Shown here piece by piece: positions 2,930 through 46,826 of a stretch of 64,000 bases of DNA. The notes under the pieces were generated by a model. The model did no database searches and was not told the origin of the DNA. It worked only from the letters and a program-made list of their open reading frames with translations. The first letter of the stretch is position 1; each line of letters begins with the position of its first letter. Origin of the DNA: Harriotta raleighana (taxonomy: Eukaryota); contig JBNZDD010013425.1 of NCBI GenBank assembly GCA_050575255.1, positions 372,001 to 436,000 of the forward strand. Reading direction: 5' to 3'. The position numbers and the translations under genes were made by a program.

Positions 2930-3523
2930 CTCAGATTTTGAGGACATCTCTTCGTCTAAGGCCAAATCATTTGGATCTACAATGTCTTCAAATGGTGGTA
3001 AACTAGGTTTCTTTTTCTCTATTATTTCACTTTCCATTTTCACCTTTGCTGCTTTAACCTGCAATCTGTCCTTCATCAGCTTTTTTTCAGAAGAAAGTGG
3101 TTGTGGAGACGCACTGGAGAGGGTTTTAAACAAAGATTCGGAGCTGCTTTTCTTTCTCTTTTTGGCTACAAGTTCATCAGAGTCTGAATTAGGAGGCCTC
3201 TTGGTTGCGGCCTTCACGTCCTGCTGCAAGCCTCCCGCCCCAGCCAACATATTGTTGTTTTCCAATGATTTTGGCTCTCTGGACATTGGTTTTGGTTCCT
3301 TAAATGCCGTCTTAGGAACAGGTTTCTCATCTTTTAGTGGTTTGTTTTCTTTGGGTTTCTTTGAAGGCTCTTTGGAAGTTTTACTGTGTTCCCTGGAAGG
3401 TTCTTTAAAGGCACTTTTATGCTCTTTTGAGTCTTTCGATGGTTTATCTTTGTGCTCTTTCATGGATTTGTGAGGCTTCGAGGAGCTGCTACTGCTGTTA
3501 GTGCCGCCCATCTTGTTTGGGTC
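2930..3523 (-). CDS. MLLT3: MLLT3/AF9 large Lys/Ser/Pro-rich exon (equivalent to human exon 5): DPNKMGGTNSSSSSSKPHK...LPPFEDIVDPND...SSKSE
   Basis: Core of ORF 2867..3529(-). Matches AF9 motifs KPHK.MKEHK.KPSKDS.EHKSAFKEPSR, AFKEPKPMS, AKKRKKSSSE (NLS-like) and LPPF.DIVDPND. Acceptor ttgcag|GAC, donor GAG|gtaagc, 594 nt = 198 aa, phase 0-0. Confidence 0.97.
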
Positions 3524-6774: not shown

Positions 6775-8305
6775 CTCAACACTATCGCCACATCCCCATC
6801 CTACCCTTCCTTGCCAAAGTCCTGGAATGCATTGTGGCAGGTCAACTCGGGTCTCCTGGATCTTGCTCCACTCCTTCCTCGAGCCACTGTAATCTGGTTT
6901 TCACCCAGCCCACAGCACAGAGACAGTGCTTGTCAAAGTTACGAATGAAGTCCTCTCTATCTGTGACCAGGGCTCCCTCTGCCTCCTTGTTCCCCTGGAT
7001 CTCTCTGTCGCGTTCGACCCAGTCAACCACACACACCATCCTCCTCCATGGCCTTGCCTCTCTCACCTATCTCAGTAGGATCGCACTCGTATGGTTTGAG
7101 TCCTAATTAACCATAAATGGTTTCTCCTCTGCCCCCGCCCAATCACCTGCAAGGTACCCCAGGGCTCCATCCTTGGCCCTCTTCTTTTCCTTATCTATAT
7201 GCTCCCTCTGGGCGATGTCATCCGCAGACATTGAGTAAACTTCCACATGTATGTGGATGACACACAAATCTACTTTGCCTTCTCCAATAATAACTTCAGG
7301 TCAGCCAATGTTCTATTAACTCGTCTTGCAGACATTAGGGCCTGGGTAAGAAATAATAATTCTTGAATATAAGGCTTTCTAGGTCTTCTAGATGGCTCAA
7401 TGTGCTTCACAGAATATATTGTAAAGTGAATTGACTGTATATTTGTGGGTGAAATGTGGCAGCCAATTGTGCACGGTGTAAACTTCCTGCAGCTGAATGT
7501 GGACAAGATGGAAGCCACACACTTCAGTTCCTGTCAGTGTCTTCATTCCTGCAGATTTAAACTCCTCAATCTCCCTGGGCTCTCCCTCAGACTCACTAAA
7601 CCAGTGCACAATCCAGGCGTTTGGTCAACCTTTAGTTATCCTTCCTCCTCCACATCTGGTCACTGACCAGGACCTCCTTCTCCCACGTCCGCATTATCCG
7701 CCTCCGACGATACCTTACCCCAAATGCAGTCAAATCCTTTGTGCATGCATTTGTTACCTCCCCCTTGGATTTCTCCAACACACTCCTTGCTGGTCTCCCC
7801 AGCTCCACTACTCAAAAGATCCAGTTCATTCAGAACTCTGTGGCCTGCATACTTACCCAGACCAAACTCCGTACCCATATCTCACCAGTTCTGGCCAAGG
7901 CTCCACACTTCCCATCACTGAATGGATCGACTTCAAGATCCTCACAATCATGTTCAAATCCATTCACTCCTGCACCTCCCTACATGTCTGACCTCCTCAC
8001 TTCCCAATCCACCACCCGGCGCCTCCACTCAACTGGCACCAGCCTCCTGCTCATCTCTCGCACCCTCCGCCCCACCATCAGAGGTTGCGCTTTTAGCCGC
8101 TACATCCCCAAACTCTGGAAGATTCTACCTCAATCTTTCCGCCTTGCCCCCTCTCTCCCCCGTTTCAAATTCCACCTGAACACTTTCCTCTTTGATTGTG
8201 TTTACGGCCATTTCCTCCCACCACGCTCCAGCTCGGAGTCAGGCTCCGCCACTGTTAAGCACTCTGACATGCTACCCTGCGTGGAGGGCGCTATATAAGT
8301 GTTGT
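6775..8305 (+). mobile_element. L2-clade LINE RT/3' fragment interrupted by a SINE piece (about 7352-7474, minus)
   Basis: [52 protein letters not shown] motifs; L2 tail gtggagggcgctatataag. Confidence 0.9.
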
Positions 8306-8612
8306 GGTACAGAACTATTACAACTCACCCAGAATGACTGTGAAAGACAGTCAAAGCTGGAATCCTAACTGGTGACACTCAGGTTTTGTTACTGAAGATA
8401 CTGGGTTAGAGAGCAAGGTTTCTGTTTCAGTAATAACAGAGAGAAGAGTTATTCTTCTCTTCTTCATACATTTTGATATCGCACCTGTGCAAAAGTCCAT
8501 TAACTGCTATAAAACATCAGTTCAAGCCGCTTACCTTAAGCTATTAAATCCATACCTATGAATTGTTATAATGCTGACTTTCTTCATAGTTAGACTGGAG
8601 TTGAAAACTGAC

Positions 8613-8735
8613 CTTTGACCCATGTGAGGGCTTGCTTTTCTTCCCTTCAGAAAGAGTCAAGGGGTTACTAGGAAGGGCAGGGGGATGAAGATGCAGTCCA
8701 GAAGGGGCTGGTGTTCCATCTGACATCAACATAAT
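8613..8735 (-). CDS. MLLT3: Additional MLLT3 exon homologous to the post-YEATS exon of ENL/MLLT1: IMLMSDGTPAPSGLHLHPPALPSNPLTLSEGKKSKPSHGSK
   Basis: 123 nt, open, phase 0-0, acceptor atgacag|ATT, donor AAG|gtcagt. Start (IMLMSDG vs VMVMPEG) and end (KKSKPSHGSK vs KKTKPSHGSK) match human ENL. It lies between the KAGG exon and the DPN exon. Confidence 0.85.
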
Positions 8736-11164
8736 CTGTCATAAAAATTACACAAATCTTAGCAAATTCAGGGTACTTGACATTAGTCACCATGGAAAAA
8801 AAGCTGCATTGCTGAAAAAGTGCATTCTGTTTAAAGGGGATCAGCAAATCATATCTATAGGTTTACTATTGTCATTTCATGACCTATGAAAATAGTGATT
8901 CTTCTCTTGCCTCAGCTTTCTTTCCCTGGATTGGAATAAAGAGAAGGGAGACTGAAAGAGAGAGAAACAAACCAAATAGCACCACCACAATAGTGTATTA
9001 GCCTGTCAACTATTTCCAAATGTCTGTAGAACGCTCTGTCAACTAAAAGTTTTAAGTTTGTAATTTAAGAAAAGAAAAACCTTAATATATATAGTATTCT
9101 TAGGAAATTTCTGTTTCATAAAAGTTTGCACCCAAACAAACCAATGTCTTTAAACTTAAATAAGTTGAGAGCTCAGTGGGCAATCCTCAAGTGAACTGCA
9201 GTTCAAGTCGTAAAAACTTTCAACAGGATTCGATTGTTTCTGCAATTCTCACAGAATAAATAAAAAGCATCTGGAAAAAAATTAGACAATGATCAGCATT
9301 TTCAAACCAAACTGGTGATAAACAACACAATGAACAATGTGGCTTTTTTCTCTATTGGTTTTGAGGAGTGTTGGTTTGTTTCAGCAGAGTACCTTGCCTC
9401 AGATGTGCACTCTGCCACAAAGGTAGATTATTTAAATTTTTAAAAAATAAACAAAAACAGCTTTTAAAGGCTGGCAAGACCTCAATCACTTTCATTGGAG
9501 ATCTGCAAATCATTTTGTTGGGATTCTGGAATCACCAGCATATCACAAAGTCCATTTGTTGGGTAATGAAGGGAATCTTTAAAAATGTTGAAAAAAAATT
9601 TAAACATCTTTATTTTTCTTGGGAAGCAATTTGGTCTAAACATGTCTGTCTGATACAAAGAGGTTGAAGATGCAATGAGCAAATTAAGGACATTTCCAAA
9701 CTGTAACTTGCTGTACTAATTGTAACTTCAAAATCGCATCTAATGTCACCAAATAAATCAATCGCAGCCCTGAAGACATGCAAAAGCAATTTTCTAGGTG
9801 ACATTTTCTTTTTAGTTTTGTTGTTAGATTTTACCTCGTTCTCAAACAGATAAGCAGCAAAAAACATTGAATGCAATTGCAAACTAAGTCAAACACAACT
9901 AGTGGCTTTACATTCTTTTTTTGCGGGGCTCATCCAGGCGTCTGAGACATGTGTAAACCCATCACCAAGCTAGAGTATCCAAATCAAGATGAGAATTCCA
10001 TGCATCCCACCTACACATGGAAATCCCACAGATAGGATTGTGGGTCTAGAATTTGCGCTCTCTCCCTGGAGGGACATATGGAAATATAGATGGGATGCAT
10101 GGAAATCTTGGCTTGCTAGGCAGTAATGGGCATAACAACAAGCAATTTTTTTTTTTTTTTAAATACAGACGGCAATCACTGAACCCAAGAATGTAAAGAA
10201 CATTTGTTAGATTTGAAAGATGTTGAGAGCTGGGTACCCCACAGAGTTTGGATTTCAGATCTTTGCCAATTTTAATACACATTCAAGATGTAAATCTTGA
10301 GCGCCTTGGGACGTCCTCCCGACGTGAAAGGTGCTCTAGAAATGTAATTTTGGTTGTTGTTGTAAATCTCCCAAGTTTTCTGAAGCCACAAAAGTAGGAG
10401 GCAGAACATACGATGAGAAGCAACACAACTACATTCTAAGAATTAAATAGAAATATAAAGGAAAGCAGCAGAGTTGGAAATTTGGAATGAAACAAAAGCT
10501 GGATAACCCTCAAAAACTACAATTTAATGGAAAGGTATGCCATAAAATGCCCCTTAACATGATGAATTTGTGATTTTTTTCTATTTCAGAAAGTTATACA
10601 AAATTTTTAGAATCCCATGATTTGGATTACCTTCAAAATTTAAGAAAAGGCATATTAATTTCATACAGCTCTGTTTAAATAAAACCTTCCAAACTCATGC
10701 CTATTCATTCACCTTAAACCCTCTGATGTGGAATGAGGTGGGTGTATCTTTTTCTTCCAAGTTATCCTGGTAAAAAAAAATTACAAAAGTGCTTTAATAC
10801 CACATTGTTCTAAACCTGTCAGATTGTGGAAATACACATGGGGGCCAACTGAATCACTGTGAATTTTTGGGAGGGAATTCTTGTAACTCGGAAATACAAA
10901 GTTCCGATTAGCTAGTGTTTGTAATGGCTCAATCCAGGTTCCCATTGCATCAAAAGTACAAGAGGTCACAATTGGCGTCAGTAACATTACATGCAATTTA
11001 GATGGAAGTTCTCCACTTTTGACATGGCAATAACGCAGTTAGGTTTGTGGGAGTTTCGGTTGGCATTATCCGGCAGTTTTTAGTGCATAAACTGAGGAAC
11101 TTTCTTCAACAATACTGCCAATTATTAAATCTGTACAGTTTTTCTTATACAAAGTGAATCCTGG

Positions 11165-17587: not shown

Positions 17588-17731
17588 CCCTCCCGCTTTC
17601 AGCAGCTTTCGTCGGAACTCCTCGGTTGGATTATTGAAGGTGAGTTTCTCACAACGAAGATGATTTACAGGTGGGTGTCCTTCAAGGTGCAGAAATAAGT
17701 CATAATCAAAGCGTACTTTCTTAGGTTCCTC
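17588..17731 (-). CDS. MLLT3: MLLT3/AF9 coding exon (equivalent to human exon 4), YEATS C-terminus: [48 protein letters not shown]
   Basis: Translated by hand (not in the ORF track in this frame). AF9-type residues ([25 protein letters not shown]) rather than ENL-type. Acceptor tttcag|GAG, donor GGG|gtaggt, 144 nt, phase 0-0. Confidence 0.97.
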
Positions 17732-19648: not shown

Positions 19649-19731
19649 CTTGTTTTTGAAGTACACCTCGATCGGCATTATAAAACCAGCGTATCCGGAC
19701 TCCTCCACTTTGTATGGTGGATCCTTGCATA
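19649..19731 (-). CDS. MLLT3: MLLT3/AF9 coding exon (equivalent to human exon 3), YEATS domain: (V)[27 protein letters not shown]
   Basis: Minus-strand translation is almost identical to the AF9/ENL YEATS segment including the ESGYAGF acyl-lysine-binding loop. Acceptor tgcag|TA and donor AAG|gtaggc. 83 nt, phase 1 to 0, matching the human exon length as I recall it. Confidence 0.97.
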
Positions 19732-21137
19732 CTGCACTCAGAAAGCAAACAATTAACAAATAATTAAAGAATAACATACAAAGGACAACATCACATATAT
19801 GACACATTTTGTATGTATAAACATGTACTTTCAGCAAAACACTTGATTGAAACAGTATCCTAGTGCTACATGATCANTGTACTTTCAGCAAAATACTTGA
19901 TTGAAACAGTATTCTAGTGCTACATGATCAGTAGTACTGTATCTGAGACTGTATATGGTCTTTAATTTTTTTGGACAAAGTGAATTTCTTCATGAATCTC
20001 TTTTTTCTGCAGAATTAATTGAAACTCAGTAAACCCATTGCAGTCACTGGCGATCAGAACCATGACAAATACATCTGTACATTTCAAAGAAAATCCACAT
20101 GCCACTCAACAGAGCTTTGTAAATATATTTTTTAATNAAAAAAACTCACATCTGTAAGCCTTTCCTGGCTTCTCACTACTGAGTGAGCAGCTGTTTAAAC
20201 AGCGGAAAAACTCAAACACAATAATCCTATCAAGAATTGTAGACAGGGTAGGAAATCCAATATGCACACACCCACACATCAACTAAACCCTGGCAGCAAC
20301 TTTAATCTGGAAAATTCAACAATTTTCCATCAGGTTTCAAATCATAGAAAGAAATGTAAGAATTCATATGTCTCACGGTATGGATTTCGAACAAGGAGGT
20401 AAACCCATAAGAAAATTCTCTAATACACCGAGACCGCAGGATAAGATAGTAACATAGAGTCCAGGCTGTGAAGGGTGATTTAGCATTATTATTTGATAGC
20501 TTTCACATAGGGAGGATGTTGTAATAGCTGGGACTCATTACTAGGAATGGTGATTGAGACAAGGATGTTGTACTACTGTACATGTTTAAGGGACAGCTTG
20601 ATGCTGGCATCATAAGAGTAGCGAGGGGACTCTTGAAGCATAAAATCAGATAGGCCTTATTCATCCCTCATTCATCCATATTCATTGTTCTACACAAGCC
20701 AAGTTGTGTAGCCAAAATATAAAGGACAAGATTTGTCCAGAAAGTATACAGTCAATCCATTTTACAGTATATTCTTTGAGACTTTAAAGATGTGATAAGG
20801 CATTCTATTGAAAGGAAGGATTATTAATATAACTTCCAATTTGGGCAAGTCATTAAAAAAATGTAATCAGTAGATGTCGAAAGGCTTTAACAGTGATAGC
20901 TGGAGGGAGAGAATTTGAAAGAAGAGAAAGTGTTATTTTTACAACAAAAAATTACAATCATCATGTTAGGAAGTGACATTATTTAATAGCTCTCATACAA
21001 TTCTTAGCAACTGGAAAAGCCAGAGAGGTAATCAGCCCTTCATCCCATGGGGCAGGAACAGAAAGATAAATGAAATGGATCAGGATATTAACACAAAGGG
21101 AGTCAAGACGAATGCAATGAGAAAAAAACCATAAGTA

Positions 21138-41779: not shown

Positions 41780-42690
41780 TGTTTCACGTCAGGAGGACGT
41801 CCCAAAACGCTGGACAGTTTGTTTAAGACCCAAGCAGGGGGAAATGTTCAGCGCGAGGGGGGGGGGGGGGAAGGGTGGGAGCGAGGAGGGGGGTAGAAAG
41901 TCGAGAGGGGAGCTGAAGGCATGGTCGAAGAGAAAGGTCTTGAGACCGGCCTTGAAAGAGGAAAGGGAGGAAGCGAGGCAAAGGCACTGGGGGATGGAGT
42001 TCCAGAGCCATGGGGATGAGCGGCTGAAAGCCCGGCCGCCAATGGTAGGACGGTTAGAGCAGGGGATGAGGAACAGACCAGAGCCAGAGGAACGGAGGGT
42101 ACGGGCAGGTAGATAGGGGGATAGTAGGTTGGAGAGGTAGGAGGGAGCATGGCCTTGTAGGTAAGGATGAGGATCTTGAATTCGATCCTCTGGGGGATGG
42201 GGAGCCAGTGGAGATGGGCGAGGGTGGGAGTGATGTAGTTTCGAAGCCTGGTGCGGGAGAATACATGAGCTGCAGAGTTCTGGATGACCTGCAGTTTGTG
42301 GATGGAGGAGCCGGGAAGGCCTACGAGGAGAGAGTTCCCATAGTCCAGCCTTGAGGTGATGAAGCAAGGGGGAAAAGGGACAAGCAGAGGCCAAAGCCAG
42401 CCAAGAGAGGTCGAGTGAGGTCAGAAAGATAAGCAGGGCATAAAGGGATGTGTAGACCAGTGTGAGAAACTTAAAATCAATCCATTCTGTGATATGGAGC
42501 CTGGCTAGGAATTATGTGATGGGGGAAATGGAGTATCGAGCTAATTAAATAACTTCAATTTGGAAGATAGTGGAGCTGGGGAGACTGGCAAGGAGGGCAT
42601 TGGAATAGTCAAGGTGATCAGTGACAAAAGTTGTTTAAGTCTTTGAAATAGGCCTGGGAGGTTGAGGAGATCAGAGCCACAAGCAGGGAG
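41780..42690 (-). mobile_element. L2 LINE 3' end (41780-42365) abutting an older L2 fragment
   Basis: ORF 41789..42394(-) contains [24 protein letters not shown] and [19 protein letters not shown]. Confidence 0.88.
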
Positions 42691-45129: not shown

Positions 45130-46826
45130 TACATTCCCCTCCCCACCAACCTACGGCTTACCCAGCTCCCCCTCCTCTGCCCACTGCTGGCTGACATCAT
45201 CAACTAATCCCTCTTCACAGGATCAATCTCTGCCCCCTTAAAACTTCTGCCATCATCCCCTCCTTAAAAAACCTTCCCTAGATCCCTCAAAGCCTAGCCA
45301 CTACCGCCCCATTTCAAACCTGCCCTTCGTTTCAAAAGCTCTTGAATGCGTTGTTGCAAACCAACTCCGCACCCACCACTTCTCCCACTTCAAACCCCTC
45401 CAGTCCGGTTTCCGCCCTGTCCACAGTACAGAGACTGCACTTGTGAAAGTCACAAACGATGCCCTCTCTATCTGTGACCAGGGCTCCCTCTGCCTCCTTA
45501 TCCTCCTGGACGTATTCGCTGCGTTTGACACAGTCGACCACCCCATCCTCCTCCACCGCCTGTCCTCTGTCATCCACCTCAGTGGGACCACACTCGCCTG
45601 GTTTGAGTCCTACCTCACAAACCACAGGCGGTACATCACCAAACGTTTTTTCCTCTCGCTCTCACCCTGTTACCTGTGGTGTACCCCAGGGATCCATCCT
45701 TGGTCCCCTGCTCTTCCTCATCTCTCTTGGGGATGTCATCCGCAAACATGGGGCACACTTCCACATGTATGCAGATGGCACCCAATTCTATTTCTCCAGT
45801 TCACTTTGCGACCCCCACTCCCCTGATGTTCTATCAGTCTGCCTGTCAGACATATGGAGCTGGATGAGCACAAATTTCTTGTAGTTGAATGTTGACAAGA
45901 GGGAGGCCATACTCTTTGGCTCTCGTCAACGTCTCCATTCGCAAGGCCTCTCACCACCGCCACCTTCCCGGTCTGCCTCTAAAACTCTCCAAACCCTAGT
46001 GCGCAACCTAGGCATCAGGTTCTACCCCCAACGGTCCTTCCTCCCTCACATCCAGTCCCTCACCAGCACCGCCTTCTTCCAACTCCGACGGATCACCCGT
46101 CTCCGGCAATATCTCACCCCAAAAACGACTGAAACCCTGGTTCACGACTTTGTCACCTCTCGGCTGGTCTTTTGCAATGCCCTCCTCTCCGATCTCCGCT
46201 CCTCCACAATCCACAGAGTCCAGCTTATCTAGAATTCTGCTGCTCGCGTTCTCAAACTTCCTCCAGTTCACTTTGCGACCCCCACTCCCCTGATGTTCTA
46301 TCAGCCTGCCTGTCAGACATATGGAGCTGGATGAGCACAAATTTCTTGTAGTTGAATGTTGACAAGAGGGAGGCCATACTCTTTGGCAATCCTTGCCAGA
46401 CTTCACTGGCTCACTATCCCAGAGAGGATTGATTTCAAGATCCTCACTCTCATCTTCAAATCTCTCCACTCCTCTGCCCCACCCACCTCTCTGACCTCCT
46501 CTCTCCTCAAACCAACATCCGTTGCCTTTGCTCCACCGGGTCTGGCCTCCTCCATGTCCCCTGAATCCTCCGCTCCACCGTCAGCGGCCGTGCCTTCAGC
46601 CACTATGCCCCGAGGCTCTGGAATTCCCTTCCTCACTCCCTCCGCCTCACCCCCTCTTTTCCCAGCTTCAGGTCCCAGCTGAAGACCTTTCTCTTCGACT
46701 GTGCCATTGGTCAACTTTCTACTCATGCCCCTGGCTCGTTCCTGGGATCCGCTATTGTGAATTGCTCTGAGATGCCATCCGGGGGTGGAGGGCGCTATAT
46801 AAATCGAAATTGATGTTGTTGTTGTT
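45130..46826 (+). mobile_element. L2-clade LINE, 5'-truncated, degenerate RT and 3' end
   Basis: Frames give [59 protein letters not shown]. Ends in ggagggcgctatataaat...(gtt)n tail. Frameshifts and stops present. Confidence 0.92.

Follow-up and report, generated by a model that had tools for sequence, protein, structure and literature searches.

An in-frame cassette exon of chimaera AF9 that may toggle a short autoregulatory strand and was likely lost independently in therians and in sharks and rays

Human AF9 (MLLT3) is presumed to pass from KAGG, the end of its last YEATS exon, directly into DPNR, whereas its paralogue ENL (MLLT1) carries a further stretch at this site; we take both from the original prediction, from other therians and from the ENL 140–153 peptide printed in PMC13643176. 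In the chimaera Harriotta raleighana, an open frame lies between the KAGG and DPN exons of an AF9-like gene. Is this frame a genuine exon, to which paralogue does it belong, and what might it do? We analysed the 64,000-nucleotide stretch that contains it (the window). The frame is open throughout on the minus strand (8735..8613) and translates into the 41-residue peptide originally predicted. Its acceptor is pyrimidine-rich and ends in AG (...TTTTTATGACAG), its donor is GTCAGT, the linker exon is preceded by TTGCAG directly before DPN at 3523, and every junction around the exon is in phase 0 (Table 1). The original prediction of an open, phase 0–0 exon with proper splice sites between the KAGG and DPN exons is thus borne out in the DNA.

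Table 1. Features of the AF9 locus in the window (window coordinates)
Feature	Position	Strand	Description
Focal cassette exon	8613..8735	-	123 nt, AG/GT, phase 0-0, 41 aa; paralogue of the 126-nt exon of ENL
First five codons of focal exon (IMLMS)	8721..8735	-	Predicted beta strand on YEATS; counterpart of human ENL VMVMP (AlphaFold, ENL crystals, PMC13643176)
Conserved intron stretch 3' of focal exon donor	8568..8612	-	Candidate splicing-regulatory element
Second optional exon	10713..10766	-	54 nt, phase 0-0, 18 aa, AG/GT; spacer between KAGG and focal exon
Large lysine/serine-rich linker exon, starts DPN	2930..3523	-	94% identical to C. milii; spliced to 8612 in run X1
Last YEATS exon	17588..17731	-	Ends KLLKAGG; donor GTAGGT; joined straight to 3522 in one run X4 contig
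MLLT3/AF9 YEATS coding exon with GFIMPIEV	19649..19732	-	tblastn of C. milii model P0004, 100% identity; ends approximate to codon

The window gene is MLLT3/AF9. In a tree of 19 AF9 and ENL rows (midpoint root; six intended outgroup rows left out), built without the cassette, it falls among named AF9 proteins with 100/100 support, as sister to AF9 of Callorhinchus milii rather than with MLLT1. The YEATS exons lie inside the window and the linker and first AHD exons in L009/L010, and the matching C. milii protein carries PF03366 and PF17793. Downstream of the gene, the same contig (C13425) has family-level matches to a ceramidase (plus strand, 1–9 kb) and a Na/Ca exchanger (minus strand, 60–240 kb), in agreement with the human gene order, ACER2–SLC24A2–MLLT3. 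Tree and synteny both uphold the AF9/MLLT3 call that had been made from the sequence, and a separate ENL-like gene is present on contig C13680 of the same genome. Two tandem ceramidase-like genes stand upstream of that ENL gene (C13680:451800-464958), and two near-adjacent matches to the first ceramidase exon at C13425:1158-1541 reflect either a duplication or an assembly repeat. The gar and paddlefish proteins P0086 and P0116 carry the GenBank name ‘ENL protein’, yet they group with AF9 and are likely mislabelled; the RefSeq member of the paddlefish cluster bears the name AF-9.

Evidence for splicing comes from contigs of organism A, a close relative whose linker exon is ~95% identical to that of the window. 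Seven runs, presumed to be RNA, were aligned; as contigs of organism A rather than of Harriotta, they show splice forms and carry no inclusion level. The focal exon is included in runs X1, X3 and X5 (three runs, two studies) and skipped in one run, X4. One X1 contig passes from 8736–8612 directly into 3522, and contig 8 of X4 passes from 17587 directly into 3522, which are the inclusion (8613 to 3523) and skipping (17588 to 3523) junctions named in the original prediction; the direct junction 17588 to 8735 is absent from the listed contigs of organism A. In X3 and X5, a contig spans 8612–8737 with no mismatch, and its free ends correspond to the linker exon on one side and to a 54-nt exon (10766..10713) on the other. 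These junctions fall at AG/GT ends and therefore imply spliced transcripts. With inclusion and skipping both present, the frame preserved and AG/GT at its ends, the focal exon is a cassette exon. Raw-read run X15 (organism C) gives barely any cover over these exons.

The 54-nt exon did not figure in the prediction. It is joined to the focal exon in runs X3 and X5, and 16 of its 18 residues match C. milii AF-9 isoforms X1 and X3. Its single match in the genome, in a search that skips common words, does not support a transposon origin.

The annotation of C. milii contains the focal exon as well. Isoforms X1–X3 of its AF-9 (XP_007898201.1, XP_007898202.1 and XP_007898203.1) include the 41-residue peptide at 100% identity, as checked against the X2 model XP_007898202.1, and X1 and X3 also have an 18-residue spacer; these are predictions from a related species (linker exon 94% identical) and come without a functional reading. 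Three of the five C. milii AF9 models include the exon and two skip it, and both forms are modelled in Rhinatrema, Corapipo, Neopelma and Patagioenas too. The newer RefSeq protein XP_042201107.1 (P0003, 468 aa) and its UniRef model are without the exon, whereas the older models P0002, P0004 and P0005 contain it and spliced contigs back it. Because XP_042201107.1 omits a demonstrably spliced exon, annotation can miss it. Searched alone, the 41-residue peptide returned four candidates with a C. milii protein as the sole match, a count that marks the sensitivity limit of the search rather than rarity.

The exon is also unusually constant. Compared with organism A it has no difference in 123 nt, against 28 in 593 nt of the linker exon (Fisher p = 0.008), and the 40 differences listed against DNA run X11, from a table with 78 further rows, all fall in 433 flanking bases and none within 8568–8741. 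Identical residues in C. milii, spliced contigs and low divergence from organism A together mean that the frame did not arise by chance. None of the ~30 synonymous sites has changed between Harriotta and organism A (P ~0.05 at the flanking rate), a weak hint that the exon may contain splicing signals.

We then asked how old the exon is. The ENL gene of the same genome has its own exon directly after the last YEATS exon (L004:247-372, 126 nt), again in phase 0–0 and with the donor GTCAGT; it is the only other match to the focal exon in the genome at E < 0.01, and 23 of 42 residues are identical between the two. Because position, phase and sequence are common to both paralogues, the exon predates the ENL/AF9 duplication, as had been proposed. 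DNA alignment shows that the residues were kept while the DNA diverged. The label ‘ENL-type’, by contrast, does not hold: the focal exon is AF9's own copy, as it is not nested in the clade of ENL exons (100/99) and its match scores are higher with AF9 exons (100–129) than with ENL exons (77–98). We regard the reality of the exon, its two splice forms, its orthology, its ENL paralogue and its presence or absence in protein models as, jointly, almost certain. An AF9-plus-ENL exon profile found no full-length counterpart among non-vertebrate-like homologues (best such E = 0.043), and therefore only the leading hydrophobic pattern is traceable beyond vertebrates; a YEATS-plus-AHD tree with distant homologues was poorly resolved and gave no root. 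In two ENL-like proteins, P0250 and P0268, GG runs directly into DA(K/N)KE. Exon-skipped ENL models thus exist, and cassette behaviour may itself predate the duplication.

The Met in GFIMPIEV had been read as an ENL-like marker of the ancestral state, which the wider family does not support. At this position, 82 distant homologues have Leu in 56 cases and Met in 10. All chondrichthyan AF9 rows with a matched motif have Met and all such bony-vertebrate rows Leu, whether or not the exon is present: Met goes with its absence in sharks, and Leu with its presence in tetrapods.

Across vertebrates, we assembled 244 proteins (the best 120 of 1016 and the best 120 of 1158 matches, plus cluster members) and grouped them by hand from their names, with the caveat that kin species and isoforms make the counts non-independent. 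The exon is present in all ray-finned fish (4/4), frog (39/39) and monotreme (11/11) AF9 models, in most models of birds (48/62), squamates (10/12) and turtles (4/5), in two of four from caecilians, and in one of 13 rows that are unnamed or fragmentary. It is absent from all 47 shark and ray protein models (19 named species) and from all 37 therian ones (16 named species, the placentals represented by five sequences), as well as from the small samples of crocodilians (0/4) and salamanders (0/1). A profile search returned the same presence and absence in sharks and rays, therians, monotremes and the chimaera, and all 31 therian models in which the last YEATS exon is present read KAGG-DPNR.

The counts of 0/47 and 0/37 therefore suggest two independent losses. 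The simplest history, which we consider probable from the distribution in protein models, is an ancestral cassette of which the skipped form became fixed separately in sharks and rays and in therians. Given the crocodilian and salamander models, ‘twice’ may undercount the losses or reflect sampling. The original prediction was therefore right that mammalian AF9 lost or skips the exon as far as therian models go, but monotreme models keep it; and the exon is indeed retained and spliced in chimaeras, but it is not peculiar to them. Conservation in other chondrichthyan MLLT3 loci, which the prediction had put forward as a test, fails in shark and ray models, a result more in keeping with a second loss than with an unreal exon.

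Several further irregularities were seen at this site. Crocodilian, salamander and Microcaecilia models without the exon (P0106, P0107, P0162, P0183, P0195 and P0105) are possible further losses. Spacers of 13–31 residues, apparently unrelated to one another, occupy the same position in P0086, P0101, P0116, P0084, P0065, P0088 and P0049, which come from ray-finned fish, a frog, a turtle, monotremes and a lizard; small in-frame exons therefore seem to have arisen in this intron several times. The last YEATS exon is skipped, with the frame kept, in many models from birds, turtles, marsupials and the platypus (P0184, P0185, P0187-P0190, P0192, P0193, P0196, P0197, P0204 and P0206). Such skipping would break the reader fold, and would represent either rare splicing or a regulated YEATS-dead form.

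What the exon encodes can be approached through structure prediction. With 92 diverse rows, AlphaFold gave a confident YEATS domain and a strand at residues 148–151, the first four exon codons (mean pLDDT 96 over residues 141–150); pLDDT falls to about 45 further on, and the exon is of low confidence beyond about residue 155. An alternative run with 51 near-identical AF9 rows left YEATS unfolded (mean pLDDT 45.8) and was set aside as uninformative. The leading residues IMLM thus quite likely form a strand on YEATS, and the remaining 36 residues, which end in a conserved basic KK.K..HG.K block, are predicted to be disordered. The model can be overlaid on ENL crystals as far as ENL residues 143–146 (9ehi_C: 143/143 residues, 0.9 Å). 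ENL structures from 2017 presumably predate the training of AlphaFold; the strand is therefore not independent evidence, and the agreement is partly circular. Solved AF9 constructs stop at residues 138–142, the structure matches include no exon-plus AF9, and the ENL exon peptide on its own had no match in the PDB.

Distant homologues carry a related pattern. After the GG of 82 such proteins, position +1 is hydrophobic in 65 and position +3 in 53 (background 17%), although some Val at +1 may represent intron read-through (GT), which leaves +3 unaffected; Asp occurs at +1 in none. Because this pattern is family-wide, the DPN of the skipped form looks derived. Within AF9, all 65 distinct exon peptides share M2, G13 and three lysines.

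The corresponding human ENL residues have a reported function. According to passages of PMC13643176, the ENL peptide 140–153 (VMVMP) binds the ENL ET domain in the manner of external motifs but ~20-fold more weakly, autoregulation has been proposed, and tight binding requires the third hydrophobic residue of the hxhxh motif; the terms ‘exon’ and ‘isoform’ are absent from its text. Human ENL 141–182 occupies the same site after YEATS and starts with the same h-M-h-M, and chimaera ENL encodes its counterpart as one phase 0–0 exon. The focal exon reads I-x-L-x-S, hydrophobic at positions 1 and 3, with Ser at position 5 where ENL has Pro. Ser takes this third hydrophobic position in 55 of the 65 AF9 peptides, the focal one included, and the hxhxh match is therefore weakened. 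Other differences are that the exon is optional in AF9 and that binding is known for ENL alone, from a free peptide; in ENL crystals the counterpart residues are ordered on YEATS, and so may be unavailable to ET. AF9 YEATS 1–138, which lacks the strand, still folds and binds acyl-lysine (4tmp, 5hjb).

We favour, at somewhat better than even confidence, a reading in which an in-frame AF9 cassette toggles a short autoregulatory strand and was likely lost independently in therians and in sharks and rays. In this reading, a short hydrophobic strand made by the first exon residues would dock on YEATS and likely could exchange onto the protein's own ET/AHD pocket. Because the matching human ENL residues are a weak internal ET ligand, splicing the exon in or out would likely toggle this autoregulatory strand, and the basic block at its end would make the lysine-rich linker more positively charged. 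Weak self-binding of AF9 to ET/AHD, in competition with AF4/DOT1L-type ligands, is the least secure step; by analogy with ENL it is conceivable, at slightly less than even confidence. More tentatively still, the common ancestor of ENL and AF9 might have had a self-closing post-YEATS strand, which ENL keeps, non-therian AF9 toggles, and therians and sharks and rays each replaced by a fixed unlatched form; we think this broader history rather doubtful.

The strand could instead be a structural cap, with the first four residues completing the edge of the YEATS sheet and affecting stability or self-association, and with no role for ET/AHD. The confident predicted strand, the ordered counterpart in many ENL crystals, the hydrophobic +1 and +3 residues attached directly to YEATS in distant homologues and the Ser at the third hxhxh position of AF9 all fit such a cap, but we judge it unlikely, as the human ENL peptide binds the ET domain, the other 36 exon residues are conserved too, and the motif is kept behind 13–31-residue spacers from YEATS in ray-finned fish, monotreme and chimaera X1/X3 models. 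Survival of the motif behind unrelated spacers therefore fits a mobile element of the protein better than a fixed cap. At the other extreme, the 41 residues may be a dispensable linker without a specific job, conserved because splicing signals lie within and next to the exon. The two paralogues, however, keep residues in common although their DNA has diverged, five positions never vary, and the ENL counterpart binds ET, which makes such a linker improbable even though silent change is missing, the downstream intron stretch is conserved, losses seem to have recurred and the peptide is mostly predicted to be disordered.

Two more alternatives concern the history of the exon rather than its function. 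It may still exist in therians or in sharks and rays, with inclusion too rare or tissue-limited to be annotated. Absence does rest on protein models, and both XP_042201107.1 and its UniRef model omit the exon; yet the exon occurs in 0/47 and 0/37 models, while these same species do have annotations of rarer splice forms, and consecutive isoform series run without it in S. canicula (X1–X6), Heptranchias (X1–X5) and Monodelphis (X1–X4), so that we think this quite unlikely. Conversion of the chimaera AF9 exon by ENL, or a gene that is really MLLT1, is highly improbable: a 42-column exon tree does place the chimaera exon on a long branch between the ENL clade and other AF9 exons, and the Met in GFIMPIEV is ENL-like, but the gene tree, the separate ENL locus, the ceramidase and Na/Ca-exchanger neighbours, the exon's higher scores against AF9 exons and the orthologous exon across bony vertebrates all point the other way.

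Cassette exons that are conserved, keep the reading frame and were lost in particular lineages after a gene duplication form a general class. The focal exon resembles its members in having a length divisible by three, phase 0–0, both forms transcribed, low synonymous change and a conserved intron flank; it differs in that it likely carries a self-docking motif, by analogy with ENL, beside a drug-targeted reader domain. In therians (Dromiciops XP_043833507.1, Dugong KAM9206637.1; human YEATS 4tmp and 8pj7), the orthologue is the exon-skipped form, without the post-YEATS hydrophobic strand. The exon is already known at the level of annotation, which limits the surprise. In a literature search that left most subscription journals outside its coverage, we found no published work on the exon, its splicing or its loss, nor its patchy loss and coincidence with the ENL autoregulatory motif in print; passages of 10.1101/466284, PMC12362337 and PMC8022399 do not describe an extra post-YEATS strand.

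Passages of PMC12362337 describe near-identical folded domains in ENL and AF9 but different dependence in leukaemia and different mutation patterns, and attribute the difficulty of making paralogue-selective inhibitors to identical pocket residues. If human AF9 has lost the exon with the ENL autoregulatory motif, this would be a simple and testable cause of paralogue divergence, for which chicken, frog and fish offer natural plus and minus isoforms. Under the broader, rather doubtful history, human AF9 would be free of autoregulation by nature, a concrete structural ground for the differences between ENL and AF9 in partner binding, condensates and disease. Work on AF9 in non-therian models also involves an isoform that humans appear to be without. 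Lysines of the ENL linker contribute to RNA binding (passages of 10.1101/2025.07.29.665963) and the linker drives phase separation (passages of PMC7112754), neither effect being mapped to the exon in these passages.

The rest of the window is largely intronic. The first 71 AF9 residues have no match in 19733–64000; the first exons therefore lie beyond the window, and this interval is likely one long intron. Read depth indicates that the window introns are repeat-rich. Long frames at 7636–8295, 41792–42511 and 45242–46229 resemble reverse transcriptase fragments, which we take to be of LINE origin.
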